A stretch of 51,306 nucleotides of DNA, counting the filler, from Perkinsus olseni (taxonomy: Eukaryota), in NCBI GenBank assembly GCA_013115125.1. It is 2 parts of 2 records of this genome, joined end to end, with 100 filler letters (N's around TTAATTAATTAA, not from the genome) between each part and the next. Parts side by side here need not be neighbours in the genome. Positions count along the whole stretch, not along the records: positions 1 to 25,611 come from JABANN010000493.1; 1 more part is not named here. One strand, given 5' to 3'. The notes under the pieces are model-generated. The model ran no database searches and was not told the DNA's origin. It worked only from the letters and a program-made list of their open reading frames with translations. This document shows, one piece after another, positions 19,372 through 25,611 of this stretch (position 1 is its first letter; every line of letters begins with the position of its first letter). The position numbers and the translations under genes were made by a program.

Positions 19372-20466
19372 AAGAAATTCGGTATGGTAGCTATTCACCA
19401 TCATCACGACTTCTTTCGAGTTCAACGAGAGAGCGCTCGACAGCTGCAAGGAATTCATAGTTTTCTCGCCTTATCCAGAGAAACGGAACACGCTACGTTT
19501 CTTTCACATTGCTGCGGCTGTTGCTAGTTGACAGCAGGTGTGATCTTCTCCTTCCACTCAGGGATTCTTCAGCCAGTCCAAGCGTTCCTTCGGCGGGAAC
19601 ATGACCTTCAACGTCGTAACGTTGTGGTACCGAGCACCCGAGCTGCTGTTCGAGTCCTCGTACTACTCCCCAGCCGTGGACATCTGGTCTGTTGGTACGC
19701 TGATGGCTGAGATGCTCCCGAGGGGAGAGAGAAGTCGACCGAGCACGGTGAAGCGGAGGGCTCCGCTGTTCCAGGTAGCGAGGGGAGATCACCATCCTTC
19801 TTTCTCGGAAATCTCGGTAGGTAAACTGTGTGAATATCATTCCATCTCGTCAACAACACGGACCATCCGCAGTTGCCGTCTTCAGGTACCCTCAGAGCTT
19901 GACCTCCTCAAGGCCATCGTAGAGCTGCTCGGCACACCCTCGGAGCAAACGTGGCCTGAAGCATCCAGTCTGTCCAGCCTCCATGAGTTTGCTTATTTGC
20001 CCGAACCCGATAATTGGCCGCGGGAAATGTTCGGTGATGCTTGCAAGGAATCGGAGAAGTTGGATGAATTCCTGAAAAGTGGGTTTGACGATTCAACGCG
20101 GAGGATTATTCAGTCGTAGTTTTTTGCTTCCGGCTTTCTTCATTTTCTTTGATCTTTTTCACTTTTCCCCTCCATTTCCCCCGTATTTTTGTCTTCATGA
20201 TTTTTGTTACTTCTAGCATCACTTAACGGCTGTGTGAATTTCCAAGTTGCTCACCACCCTCTTGCTTTTCCCAGCTTCGTCCGTTCACGTATGCTGATGT
20301 TGAACTCGTCGGCGCGGCCACCCAGTCCCAACTTGCTCGAGGACGACTACTTTACTTTGGGCCACCCGAGTATGGCCAGCAAGAGCTAGCGAAGGCACTC
20401 CGCCCAGCTGTGGATGGATAATATTCCACGACAATTTTTCATTTTTGGTTTCCGCGCCTCGTGTTG
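19372..20466 (+). pseudogene. Partial duplicate (last three exons) of the CDK7/MRK kinase gene
   Basis: Aligns to 10924-12253. The last acceptor is mutated (TTCAG to TTCAC, 20288) and there is a 4-bp deletion near 20383 (AAGGAAGAGCTA to AAGAGCTA). No 5' kinase exons upstream. Confidence 0.92.
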
Positions 20467-20703
20467 AGCGAGTTGCGGGCAGTTCGCTCGTGATGTCGAA
20501 GGTTTGGACGGTGAGGGGATTGTCGCATAGCCGCCCACGTGATGACTGAACTCAAGACCATGAGAGATGCTGCCTGCTCATGATACATGAGGATTATTCT
20601 CAATTAGAGATTATCACTGTAGAGTAAGTGATAAAAGTGATAAAATGGTTGGGTGCCACTCAATGAATGGATTTACGATTAGTTTCTTTGCAACAGTAAT
20701 GTA

Positions 20704-21423
20704 CTAATGGACGATGATGTCGGAGCAAGTTGCGTAATAAACGCCTTGGAACTTCGACCACATGTAGAGGATAGTGTAATTGCCGGGCTGAATGTTAGCG
20801 GGTATGATAAGATCAGCAGAGGAGGGATCGGTGTGAACATTCTTATGATAAAAAGGTAAGCAGTCCTCCAACGGCAAGGTGAAATCTTCCCATGAAGGAT
20901 CCTCCTTGTAAGGGGCCATCTTGAACACGATACATGTACCTAACACATGAGAGGTCGAGGTGACGATAAGATATGCCATCACCATCAGAGACCGAGTTAG
21001 TGTGACCATTGCCCATCCAAGAGATATGAAGCTTCCCACCTGAAGAGGATACATCAGAGGTTGAAAGAAGATCTTCGGGGGGGGGACCTCGAGTAACCTC
21101 CGCGCGACTTAGCATGTTCGGAGCACCGTCAGAGCCAGCACGCCTGCAAGGCCTCAGAGAGGTCTCGTCTAACGGCTTGTACGGCGGGGGTAAACCCTCG
21201 CACTGACTTAACGACGGCTTGGGACACATCGGGCGCTGAAGAGGAGCATCACCGGTATGAGTCAAAGGGAGCTGCTCACCGCATAATACTGGTCGGGGTG
21301 GTTGTGGGTTGTTGGCCCCATCCTCGGAAGCCCACTCTTAATGTCGCCCTTCAGATTGAACACCCAACTGTGAGCAGAAGCCCCAGTGATGCTCATGATG
21401 ATAATAACAATACCACAGATCAT
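20704..21423 (-). CDS. Secreted His-brace protein, LPMO-like (4 exons, 194 aa)
   Basis: Exons 21423-21280, 21235-21088, 21039-20983 and 20939-20704 join through GT-AG introns of 44, 48 and 43 nt into 585 nt. Signal MICGIVIIIMSITGASA, then HSWV; later ISWMGNGH, IPANIQPGNYTILYMW and YYATCSDIIV*. Confidence 0.75.
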
Positions 21424-21692
21424 TATTGAAGAGTACTGGCAGGATGAGAGATTCACCATAAATTCAGCGGATAAACGAGTCATCAATCAGGGTTGAACCC
21501 GGCCCGGAAACGTTCCATGAAATGTTGTTGTTAGTAGCAACACCCAGCAACCGTTTCATGCAACGAATAATGGGCGAACGAGATTCAAGAGTGTGCGCCA
21601 CCAGTAGTCCGCACAATGGGACACCTCGTGTCCCGGTGGCGCCTCCCACGGCTCGAGCTAGTGCCCAGAGCACCAGCTCGAGCCGTGGGACC

Positions 21693-21848
21693 TCATTCTG
21701 CGCCTTGCACTCCTGTACATGAGTATACGTGCTACACTTAGCTTAGCGTAGTAAGCTTTAGTGCACATTATCACTAGGCTCCTCTCAGAGGAGTCCTCTG
21801 GAGTCTTTGAGCCCCGTCTCAAATAGCCACACTGTACTGAGTTGTAGT
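21693..21848 (+). repeat. Third, partial copy of the ~290-bp element
   Basis: ATTCTGCGCCTTGCACTC..GTGCTACACTTAGCT..TTTGAGCCCCGTCTCAAATAGCCACACTGTACTGAGTT matches 17100-17256. Confidence 0.85.
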
Positions 21849-22081: not shown

Positions 22082-24750
22082 CTACTCACACGATAAACAG
22101 GAAGCAACTTTTTCGCCATACAGTTCGAACCTCTTGGGAACTGCAACCACTCGCCGTACCACAGCCAACGGGTCCTCGGAACCATCGTATTTGCACAGCT
22201 CGTCAACTTCCCAGTCCGTCAGAATCTTCTGCGGGGGCATCTCGCCATCCACAGTAGCAGCAAGCTCACGCCGCCCTTCATGCAACCGTCTCTCGCGTAT
22301 CTTCGATTTCCTCCCATTCACACGTTCACCCGCTTGCCAAGTCTCCGTTTCAAAGACCCGAGAGAAACTGCCGTCAATCCCCGCCCGAGGGGGCTCCCAT
22401 ATCGAGTGAGGGAGGGTCCGTCGACTGGACGTCCTGTTTATGTACGAGTAGACTGAGTAGGCGGTGGCATCGAAGGTCTCCCGCAAGTGACCGGAGTGGA
22501 GGAGGCAGACGATCGCAACCGCGACCCTCTCGGTTTCACAATGAAGGCCTTTTCGGCATTTTTCGCTTAGCTTCAAGACCGTTAGCTTTTCATCTTTTGC
22601 AGCAGCTTTCTCGAGCTGGCAGAAGATATCCTCAATCACCCTTCCCTCATCGGGAGCTTCTTTGAGACGTTTGCTCGGCGGAGCGGAGTCCTCCACGCCA
22701 CACACGTCGCAATAGCCGTCACAGACTGGCCGCTGATGGTCCCCCATGTGCGCAGCAAGATACGCTCTTCGACACTGGGTCGTGGAGAAGGCGTACTCGG
22801 CAAGAGCATAGAGTTCCTGCAGGGCGTTGGGCTTCCAGTACACCATCACACTTTGCCGACAGATGTCGAACGGTGATGCCATCAACACCGAAATTGCAGG
22901 CCGACCGTCGCGACCACAACGACCTGAGAAAATGGCATCTCCTCGGCGCGAGTGCGGTATCCCGTTGAACGGTTTGTAGCAGTAGAATGAACGAAGTAGA
23001 GCAGATAGAGTATGGAGTAGCCGAGAGAATAGGAGCTACCACCGCGAGGCGAGTAGCAGGAAATAATTTTGTACTGCCTGTGGGAATATCCGTAAATTCA
23101 CGGGAACGGTAAGAATGATCCATTCACCCCACTTTTGGACCACCCTGGCCAATACGGTGGTTATAGTGAACACAGGGCTAGTGAGGCGGCGCTCTCCTCC
23201 TCTGGCCTACCCGATTCCTGTTGATAGTGCTGAATACTCGGAGGCATCGAATAGTGGACGACCCAGCGTACACCAGAGTGATGGACACCCATACCGAAGG
23301 CGACCGTCGCCGCGATCACCTTGCTCTCACCTGAGGTGCTGCAATGCCTCAATCAATTGTGACAGAACGAAGACTGCAACCTCTGGCGACTGGAAGAGTT
23401 TTTAAAGACGACTATTTTGTAGAATTGGCGTGATGACAGCCGGCGGCGGCGCCCGTTGTGGTGAGAGACGTGGCGATCATACCATTTCCAGAACGATGTA
23501 CAAGGAAAGCTTCCATCGACTCACCAACCCTCTCACCCGACACCCATGATTTGTGAACAGCAGCCCGACTGTCCGTGGCGAGGTCGCCATGATACCACAC
23601 TGCAGAGATACCAGCATCCCTCAGGCTTCCACAGGTATCTTCCGTCTCCTTCCTACTCAGGCAATACACGATGCCACAAGATTCGCTCGCCCGGTCCGCA
23701 GCACACAACCTGAAGCTCGATCATACTCAACTGACGCGGATGAATTCTGCAGCTACTTTTTCACTGTAGCCAAGAGGAGCTCGGTGGCCTTCACTTTATC
23801 CCGCGGTTTGTACAGAACAGAGTAGAAGATGTTGGCTCGATCGCAGGGAGCTCGCTTGATGTTAGTCCGGGAGCGATTGAGGTCCAGCCGAGTGCATATA
23901 TCTTCAACAACTTGCGGCGTCGCCGTAGCCGTGGTCGCGACTATTGGCACGCCCGGGAAGTGCTTTCTGAACGCAATGACTGCTGGTCACCATATGCTTG
24001 GCCTCCTACCGGAGCATCCCAAGTTTGAGGTAATCCTGGCGGAAGTCATGGCCCCACTGGGAGATGCAGTGGCTCTCGTCGACAGCTATCAAACCAATAC
24101 CCTCCGACTTGTGAAGATGACCGAGAAGATTCATAAACTGGGCACTCTTCGCAATCCTCTCGGGAGTTACGAAGAGTATCTGAGGTCGAAGGATGCGCGG
24201 AATCTTTGAGGTAGGAAGAGGGATGCTCTCTCCTTGGGGAGTGGGGATGTATCAGCTGTGGTACATCGACTCTCCTCTCCTTCATCTCTTTCCGTACTGC
24301 CGTCTGCCGCTGCCTCGTCTCCTGCGCGCTCAGTAGACGTGCCGCGACCCCGACGGCCATCAACGACGATACCTGAACTACCCAGCATCTTCGAACGAAG
24401 CTCTTCTTACACATCCTGCTGTGCATGGTACCTTCACCACGTCTCACGACACGAAGGGCCCAATTCTGTGGTGATGGTAGAGACTCTTCCAACACCACCC
24501 TTACAGTAGCGTTAGTCTCGCAGCTCACCTGGTCGTGCATGAGAGATATCAAGGGCGACACCACCACAGTCATCTTCTTATCGGCGGCAGTAGCAGCCTG
24601 AGTGCCTGGCCGAAGGCATGGCCACTGACGTTGAGCAAGCTGCTCACCGGTGATGATCGCCGGCAGCTGATAGACCAGACTTTTGCCGCTCCCTGTCGGT
24701 GCGACCATCACAGCATCAGCGCCACTCATGAGGGCGTTCAGGATGCTCAG
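22082..24750 (-). CDS. RecQ helicase (RECQL1-like), 5' end cut by a hAT insertion
   Basis: [80 protein letters not shown] zinc motif [14 protein letters not shown]. Coding sequence stops abruptly at LSILNAL (24750). Confidence 0.92.
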
Positions 24751-25611
24751 TAGAGGTGGGCGAGAGTACGGGTACGGTTTGGTACGGAGTACGGTACGGG
24801 TACGATTACGGTTCCGTACCCGTACAACCCGCCACCGCCGTACACAGGTACGGCTGCACAACTTGCCCCCGGGGACGCTAGCAGCGTCACGCAACGAAGC
24901 TAGGCACTAGCGTTATGCTGAGTACACTCAGCATCATATCCTATGAATCGATTTGTGATAACCGCCAGTCGCTAATGGAATACCGAGTCATTGTAGTGTC
25001 ATTCCTCACATGTCCTCCCCATCCGATGCTACCCAAGCCACCGACAATCGTTTGTCGAAGGGTTGCAAGCGCTTCCCAGACTGGGAAAGGCACGAAGGCA
25101 ACAAGCTAAAGTGCCCTAGGTGTCACAAGCTCATCGCGGTCAACAAGGGGTCTTACAGCGGGGTGGCTAAGCATGAAGATTCGTGCAAGAAGCAGCATGC
25201 TGAAGCGAAGAAGACCGATAACAAGTTGCTGCGAGATTTCGTAAAGGCTGGTGTTTCTGCGGAAACCGAGGCTCTTCTCATCGAGTTCGTCATCAATAGT
25301 GGCAGCCCACTCAACTTGGTCGACGACAAGCATTTCAGAAAGTTCGTCACTGCCCTCAATCGTAATTATAAGCCCCCATCACGCCGTGCTTTATCGAACC
25401 GCATCCTAAGCAGGATGGACAATCATTTCCAGGCTGTTAAAGGTAAACAGGGTCTCACTGGAGCTTCACTCTAGATCTCGTCTCTTTCAGCGTGGCTCCG
25501 TGAAGCTCGGAGCGTCAATCTCACGATGGATGTATGGAGCCGAAGCTCTAGATCAAGCTTTCTCAGCTTGATGGGGCATACAATCATTGAGAATCAATTG
25601 AAGGCGGTCGT
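24751..25611 (+). mobile_element. hAT DNA transposon, left end and start of transposase; runs into the gap
   Basis: Terminus TAGAGGTGGGCG at 24751 and clustered subterminal GTACGG/CCGTAC repeats at 24766-24853, followed by the transposase gene. Confidence 0.85.
25010..25611 (+). CDS. hAT transposase, N-terminal part (intron 25443-25490)
   Basis: BED-finger-like CPRC..KHEDSC and PLNLVDDKHFRKFV..YKPPSRRAL. After the intron, VNLTMDVWS..SFLSLMGH contains the first catalytic D in a DxW motif. Confidence 0.88.

Follow-up and report, generated by a model that had tools for sequence, protein, structure and literature searches.

A spliced Perkinsus olseni gene for a predicted secreted histidine-brace protein with the fold of lytic polysaccharide monooxygenases

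As shown in Table 1, the minus strand of a stretch of Perkinsus olseni DNA (assembly GCA_013115125.1; 51,306 nucleotides (nt), filler included, referred to below as the window; positions 1–25,611 come from record JABANN010000493.1) carries a gene of four exons (21423–20704), whose product is predicted to be a small secreted copper protein with the fold of lytic polysaccharide monooxygenases (LPMOs). Joining of the exons by script gave a coding sequence of 585 nt and a protein of 194 amino acids (aa). An earlier reading of this DNA, made without database searches (the sequence-only reading), had placed here a “hidden” spliced gene with three short GT-AG introns and had described its 194-aa product as an LPMO-like protein of the histidine-brace type. 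The gene was found to be present with exactly this structure. Likewise, the features on which that description was based could all be read in the sequence, i.e. a 17-aa leader ending in ASA and directly followed by His, a second His, a Tyr within the last beta-strand motif and six Cys behind residue 17 of the spliced product. In the numbering of this product, the two His and the Tyr are His18 (mature residue 1), His110 (mature His93) and Tyr185 (mature Tyr168). A homology search of the window revealed the gene in a single copy.

Public sequencing runs provided the transcript evidence. Approximately a quarter to a half of the sampled words of positions 20500–21700 were present in 20 runs from 11 studies; the library type of all matching runs is a guess (“RNA?”), none of them being on record as RNA. 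Contigs devoid of the three introns and with exact joints were obtained from 4/4 runs examined (from four studies), and the proposed splice junctions were thereby reproduced to the nucleotide. Two of the contigs (661 and 667 nt) span positions 20640–21437 and contain all three joints with 0 mismatches. The intron ends read CT..AC on the plus strand, i.e. GT..AG on the minus strand, and the splice sites conform to GT-AG on the minus strand only. One contig of run X1 extends beyond position 21437 by 10 letters, the reverse complement of which equals positions 11–20 of the Perkinsus spliced leader PmaSL1 (sequence given in the part of PMC3101222 available to us). Therefore, the mRNA is trans-spliced and has a 5′ untranslated region (UTR) of about 13 nt; the ATG at position 21423 is the first one downstream of the acceptor AG.

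These data identify a real, spliced and spliced-leader trans-spliced gene that belongs to a Perkinsus species, P. olseni being the closest one. The opposite explanation, according to which chance open reading frame (ORF) fragments happen to be bordered by fortuitous GT-AG pairs, could draw on the lack of any Pfam match of the single exons; it is refuted by the exact intron-less contigs from 4/4 runs, by the identical joins in three Perkinsus species and by the existence of 54 homologues (both described below), and may for practical purposes be dismissed.

Further contigs of run X1 show 5 and 11 differences relative to the window in the stretches 21141–21235 and 21298–21427, and one of them continues into unlike sequence. 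This points to another allele, or else to a paralogue, in the sample sequenced.

A search with exon 4 matched five public Perkinsus proteins. From end to end, P0004 of P. olseni (196 aa) shares 92.3% identity with the spliced product; for P0007 of P. marinus the value is 77%, and P0009 is a P. chesapeaki protein. The exon joins are identical in the orthologues of three Perkinsus species, including P0004 and P0007. Since the annotation of public Perkinsus genomes includes such orthologues, under the label “hypothetical protein”, the gene cannot be called hidden. The UniRef name of P0007 starts with “Chitin-binding type-” (the remainder of the name is missing), which hints that some automatic pipeline once tied this protein to the AA10 family (PF03067, LPMO_10).

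Two of the five public models, P0005 and P0008, are wrong. In P0005 (P. marinus, 702 aa, “eIF4A, putative”), exons 2–4 are joined to the adjacent RecQ-like helicase, apparently through a merge during annotation; this model shows that the synteny is conserved. When P0008 (P. olseni FOZ60_005903) is set against window positions 20660–21337, parts of exons 1 and 4 turn out to be read out of frame, and the peptides of this model match ORFs of the window that are likewise out of frame. Therefore, either frameshifts are present in that allele or assembly, or the model itself is incorrect.

Table 1. Positions in the window of the exons, introns and UTRs of the LPMO-like gene, and of adjacent frames.
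Feature	Position	Strand	Remarks
5′ UTR, short	21424..21437	(-)	contig ends at 21436/21437; acceptor AG 21437-21436
Exon 1	21280..21423	(-)	48 aa; ATG 21423-21421; 17-aa signal peptide (predicted) 21423-21373; His1 (His18) codon 21372-21370, immediately after GASA; first beta strands
Intron 1	21236..21279	(-)	44 nt, GT..AG; joint 21235/21280 in contigs from 4/4 runs
Exon 2	21088..21235	(-)	Cys-rich loop region with three Cys and the RPCR motif, from translation
Intron 2	21040..21087	(-)	48 nt, GT..AG; joint (cut +2) in 4/4 runs
Exon 3	20983..21039	(-)	strand and WMGNGH motif, the final residue of which is the second brace His (codon 21004-21002)
Intron 3	20940..20982	(-)	43 nt, GT..AG; joint (cut +2) in 4/4 runs
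Exon 4	20704..20939	(-)	IPANIQPGNYT, YMW, CSDI; axial Tyr codon 20736-20734 (second Y of VYYATCSDI); stop TAG 20706-20704
3′ UTR, end approximate	20571..20703	(-)	contigs reach 20571 (X1), 20577 (X7) and 20640/20641 (X4, X2) and are unable to set the true 3′ end
Opposite-strand frame, 109 aa	21100..21429	(+)	no Pfam match
Upstream neighbour, RecQ-like helicase gene	22082..24906	(-)	DEAD and RecQ_Zn_bind Pfam matches; tblastn to P0005
Downstream open frame with protein-kinase fragment	19544..20119	(+)	Pkinase, E 3.3e-10

A profile derived from three Perkinsus proteins was searched against 1.84 billion representatives, which revealed 54 relatives at E≤1e-3, 45 of them at E≤1e-10. The alignment on which the following counts are based (A2, 42 sequences) contains the 3 Perkinsus proteins and 39 of the 54 matches. 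The 15 sequences left out are P0014 (a near-duplicate of P0012), the fragments P0043, P0046, P0050, P0051, P0053, P0055, P0056, P0057 and P0060, and the long multi-stretch proteins P0031, P0054, P0059, P0061 and P0062. P0031 was rejected as a relative, as it is an unrelated repeat protein matched through a short motif only. The organism labels among the relatives are those of Perkinsus; the remaining sequences bear source tags (MMETSP, JGI, ENA and similar).

The conservation of the two His residues, on which the sequence-only reading depends, is evident in this alignment. His1 is kept in 33/35 sequences that reach this position, the His of GNGH (His2) in 39/42 and the Asn two residues ahead of it in 40/42, while the axial position is aromatic in 42/42 (Tyr in 22, Phe in 20). 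One Arg is invariant (42/42), and each of the six Cys is kept in 39 to 42 of the 42 sequences, those encoded by exon 2 (C54, C62 and C80 in the numbering of P0004) in 42/42 each. The residue before His1 is G, A or S in 35/35 sequences, behind a hydrophobic stretch, and the window reads A-S-A/H at this site; this pattern is consistent with the predicted leader cleavage, which would expose His1 as the N-terminus. The signature of the candidate family is HSW...RPCR...W.GNGH...F(W/Y)(Y/F)SSC.DI.

P0045 and P0058, which have no His1, are also devoid of His2, and both residues are likewise missing from a third relative, P0066. In these proteins, Y or K stands in place of His1 and VND or NGL in place of GNGH; they retain the axial Tyr, the arrangement of the Cys and the Cys-rich modules described below. 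P0058, P0066 and P0045 therefore seem to be an offshoot of the family without copper. As both His are thus kept or lost as a pair, it can be argued that the brace is under selection. The three proteins keep the motifs of the fold, which implies that the scaffold is usable without a brace. This would suit a non-enzymatic, glycan-binding or structural protein of the wall (an adhesin or wall component) that has the LPMO fold and in which copper plays no role, and the fold is indeed common to fusolin (4yn2) and a GbpA-type colonisation factor (8gul), both of which are found among the structural matches (see below). We consider such a function of the Perkinsus protein improbable, since the His pair is kept or lost together family-wide and since His1, His2 and the axial aromatic residue are kept in 5/5 N-terminally readable Perkinsus proteins (window, P0004, P0006, P0007 and P0009).

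AlphaFold modelling of P0004 with A2 gave a structure with a predicted local distance difference test score (pLDDT) of 89.2 and a predicted template modelling score (pTM) of 0.84; a first model, based on 3 sequences (pLDDT 49), was discarded. Every match listed by Foldseek was an LPMO (52 matches at E≤1e-3), and a second look with VIA gave LPMO or LPMO-like proteins as 50/50 listed entries. In an exhaustive VIA search of 48,161 PDB-representative chains, ranks 1–23 were all LPMO or LPMO-like (Z 12.2–8.7), followed by generic beta-sandwiches (Z≤8.0). The structures matched included (i) AA15 5msz (Z 12.2, root-mean-square deviation (rmsd) 3.6, 147 aligned residues), (ii) AA10 3uam (Z 11.1), (iii) AA11 4mai (Z 10.9), (iv) AA9 5nns (Z 10.9), (v) AA13 4opb (Z 10.6), (vi) the X325 protein 6ibh (Z 10.1, rmsd 3.0, 121 of 150 residues aligned), (vii) the colonisation factor 8gul (Z 9.7), (viii) the AA16 LPMO-like protein 7ze9 (Z 9.6), (ix) fusolin 4yn2 (Z 9.5) and (x) AA14 5no7 (Z 8.7). 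In those chains that are numbered from the mature N-terminus, residue 1 is the aligned counterpart of residue 20 of the model, the His that follows the leader.

The Ig-like/FnIII-like beta-sandwich of LPMOs, which had been anticipated before any model was available, is thus the fold that structure prediction assigns to the protein, and together with the conservation described above it supports the LPMO-like histidine-brace reading. We are highly confident that the gene encodes a secreted histidine-brace protein of the LPMO fold. Its top structural families are tied within about 1 Z, and in the predicted model the clade is equidistant from AA9, AA10, AA11 and AA15.

At the level of sequence, AA9 (PF03443) gave at best 17.6 bits (P0026) and 16.1 bits (P0007) vs a gathering score of 27.8. 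AA10 (PF03067, LPMO_10) gave no match at E≤10 for P0004, P0006 and P0007 and none at E≤0.01 in the 42 members of A2. All scores with DUF7492 (PF24320) were below the 27-bit gathering cut-off (best 26.8, P0064, profile positions 189–240 of 265), with no match among the Perkinsus proteins P0004, P0006 and P0007. A phmmer search of the PDB with full-length P0004 returned noise only, and exon 4 alone gave weak AA11 matches (E 0.063 and 1.6). The A2 profile had 5 matches in the PDB at E≤10, all of them LPMOs: two AA11 structures (9exj, E 2e-5; 4mah, E 1.2e-4), aligned over approximately 50 C-terminal residues, and, at E 0.4–1.2, a third AA11 and two AA9 structures. AA15 5msz is absent from these matches. 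The HMMER alignment places the Tyr/Phe of the family on the axial Tyr of AA11, and Phe or Val on the AA11 Glu; in AfAA11B these AA11 residues are Y141 and E139, according to an excerpt of PMC12186267.

AA11 (AoAA11 4mah/4mai, AfAA11B 9exj/9hdg, AfAA11A 7p3u) is therefore the sole family with a significant sequence link to A2. Its members share with the Perkinsus family the C-terminal pattern IP..I.PG.YT..W.W...Y..C..I, the fold (Z 10.6–11.0) and a secreted N-terminal His. However, the alignable part is confined to those ~50 C-terminal residues, the identity in structural alignments is 16–18%, and at the position of the AA11 Glu the family has Phe or Val and in none of the 42 sequences Glu or Gln. 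The His1-His2 spacing also differs, being 92 residues in the Perkinsus protein and 60 in AA11 (the second His of AA11 is His61 in the part of PMC12186267 available to us). In addition, the HSW start, the RPCR and W.GNGH motifs and the six Cys distinguish the Perkinsus family from AA11.

The best structural match, TdAA15A of family AA15 (5msz), has a similarly spaced set of residues, i.e. His1/His91/Tyr184 (as given in an excerpt of PMC5823890) vs His1/His93/Tyr168 in the Perkinsus protein. However, the identity is 13% and the lead of about 1 Z over other families amounts to a tie. Moreover, AA15 members are said to match the Pfam LPMO model (same excerpt) and proteins of the Perkinsus family do not, and the residue two before His2 is Ala89 in TdAA15A and Asn in the Perkinsus family. 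AA9 and AA10 resemble the family in fold (Z 10–11.5) and in possessing a histidine brace, whose axial residue is Tyr in AA9 and Phe in AA10; they differ in Pfam scores, which are sub-threshold (AA9) or nil (LPMO_10), and in that no Gln/Glu occupies the AA9 position. The terminal (Y/F)xxCxD(I/V) pattern of the family also resembles that of many AA10s. The sub-threshold matches to DUF7492, found in 24/42 members (best E 9.1e-6, profile ~189–243 of 265), lie on the same C-terminal strand motif, but they cover only a fifth of the profile. The clade, then, passes no tested family threshold, has its own set of motifs and is devoid of the canonical second-sphere residue, while the LPMO superfamily to which it belongs is itself known. 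In CAZy it might be filed as a distant AA11 or AA15.

Whether the protein is also a catalytic LPMO was weighed separately, and several observations weigh against this. (i) The sequence-only reading had pointed out that the Gln/Glu found two residues before the axial aromatic residue in several LPMO families is Val here; this absence proved to be family-wide, the position being F in 36, V in 3 and I, L and N in 1 sequence each, with Glu/Gln in 0/42. (ii) LPMO-like histidine-brace proteins without the right second sphere have no reported peroxygenase activity, as far as the available part of PMC12186267 goes. (iii) Non-catalytic relatives are nearly as close in fold as true LPMOs, namely X325 6ibh and the AA16-like 7ze9. 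(iv) No Pfam family is above threshold for single exons, Perkinsus proteins or A2 members. (v) The Perkinsus proteins contain no carbohydrate-binding module. (vi) The modelled structure is that of P0004, the 92% identical orthologue, and not of the window protein itself. The main doubt is that a protein without the usual Gln/Glu may bind copper without cutting sugars, like X325 and some AA16-like proteins.

On this basis, the product could be a copper-binding, non-catalytic LPMO-like protein acting in the manner of X325/Bim1, i.e. serving at the surface of the parasite to take up or buffer copper or to give redox protection. The likeness to LaX325 (6ibh) consists of the fold, the small single domain, present in the Perkinsus form as a bare domain with no binding module, and the missing canonical second sphere. 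It is extended by the ESM Atlas, in which a BIM1-like cluster (domain in 36% of members) lies close to the protein (0.90 by features, TM 0.72 by row); the LPMO-type clusters among the Atlas neighbours are at 0.92–0.94. X325 proteins have an extra Asp copper ligand and a C-terminal glycosylphosphatidylinositol (GPI) anchor. In contrast, the Perkinsus protein does not extend beyond the last strand and has neither a hydrophobic C-terminal tail nor an anchor signal, and its family keeps the axial Tyr/Phe in 42/42 sequences. The fusion of relatives to glycoside hydrolase family GH16 and Cys-rich modules suggests carbohydrate work, and bona fide LPMO families rank slightly higher in the structural comparison (Z 12.2–10.6). 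Furthermore, in SmAA10A the Glu comes from elsewhere in the chain (excerpt of PMC12186267), which could also apply to the Perkinsus protein; therefore, absence of the residue at one position is no proof of its absence in space. Taking both sides together, we regard an X325-like function as fairly unlikely, and favour, on balance, the view that the 194-aa secreted single-domain protein probably acts as a catalytic LPMO.

The architecture of the relatives bears on the possible substrate of such an LPMO. Most of them are 250–765 aa long, with a leader and the LPMO-like domain at the N-terminus and, C-terminal to these, Thr/Pro-rich linkers and 1–3 copies of a Cys-rich module. The module, present in non-Perkinsus relatives, is ~45–55 aa long and has the pattern Y..GC...FC....G.SYCK.W..D.CGRS.C; it occupies residues ~212–275 and 320–365 of P0011 and occurs likewise in P0013, P0015, P0023, P0030 and P0058. 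Searches with it revealed no Pfam family, no usable ESM Atlas match and only a chance match in the PDB (E 8.7). It may be an undescribed carbohydrate-binding module. In P0016, P0042, P0073, P0075 and P0076, GH16 is fused to the LPMO-like domain (P0016: 51.3 bits vs a Pfam cut-off of 22). Such fusions account for 2/42 sequences of A2 and 4/27 matches of a separate homologue search. As predicted domain partners, they give hints of the substrate class and point to a beta-glucan or a chitin-glucan.

Signal-peptide cleavage, copper binding, catalysis, the substrate and a role as an effector are what we infer for the protein, and a possible mechanism may be outlined as follows. Signal peptidase would cut after Ala17 and so make His18 the N-terminus. 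The amino group and side chain of His18, plus His110, would then form a histidine brace around one copper, with Tyr185 at the axial position of the metal, and the six Cys could form three disulfides stiffening the long loop region. The reduced copper would react with H2O2 or O2 and cause an oxidative break of glycosidic bonds in a structural beta-linked polysaccharide. Candidate substrates are the wall of the parasite itself (in growth or in zoosporulation) and chitin or other glycans of the host mollusc.

The clade is common to Perkinsus and marine microbial eukaryotes, the origin of the relatives being taken from source tags such as MMETSP, and is uncharacterised. A more far-reaching proposal is that the gene and its ~50 cluster-level relatives constitute a new LPMO (CAZy AA) family, in which a non-canonical second sphere, marked by the missing Gln/Glu, the nearly invariant Asn two residues ahead of His2 and the invariant Arg, tunes the brace and the GH16-indicated substrate, beta-glucan or chitin-glucan, is one that no current LPMO family covers, and that the stripped-down secreted form of Perkinsus remodels the parasite wall or attacks mollusc glycans by means of host-derived H2O2. 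We put this forward tentatively, and in its entirety it is doubtful rather than probable.

Both neighbours of the gene in the window (Table 1) are functionally unrelated to it. The helicase gene lies directly upstream, on the same strand; the kinase-containing frame downstream, on the opposite strand, is probably one exon of a cyclin-dependent kinase (CDK)-like gene.

In our literature search, no paper linking Perkinsus to LPMOs was found, nor anything on DUF7492, nor, among the papers listed, an LPMO paper under AA18, AA19 or AA20. The sequence-only reading had stated that no characterised LPMO is known from an alveolate; this stands as far as characterised enzymes are concerned, but AA15-type sequences from Alveolata and other protists were reported in 2018 (legend of Fig. 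2 in an excerpt of PMC5823890). AA11-type sequences have been described in a rhizarian protist (bioRxiv 10.1101/2021.12.30.474559, available in part).

To our knowledge, each new LPMO family from AA13 to AA17 brought a new substrate or new biology. The combination of the LPMO fold and the histidine brace without the usual second-sphere residue makes the proteins described here a natural test of which residues render a histidine brace catalytic. As the protein is small, single-domain and expressed, follow-up would be cheap. Perkinsus causes major disease of oysters and clams. If the gene product is a copper oxidase that is secreted, uses up H2O2 and cleaves structural glycans, it would be a candidate for a role in remodelling the wall, invading tissue or withstanding the oxidative burst of the host.

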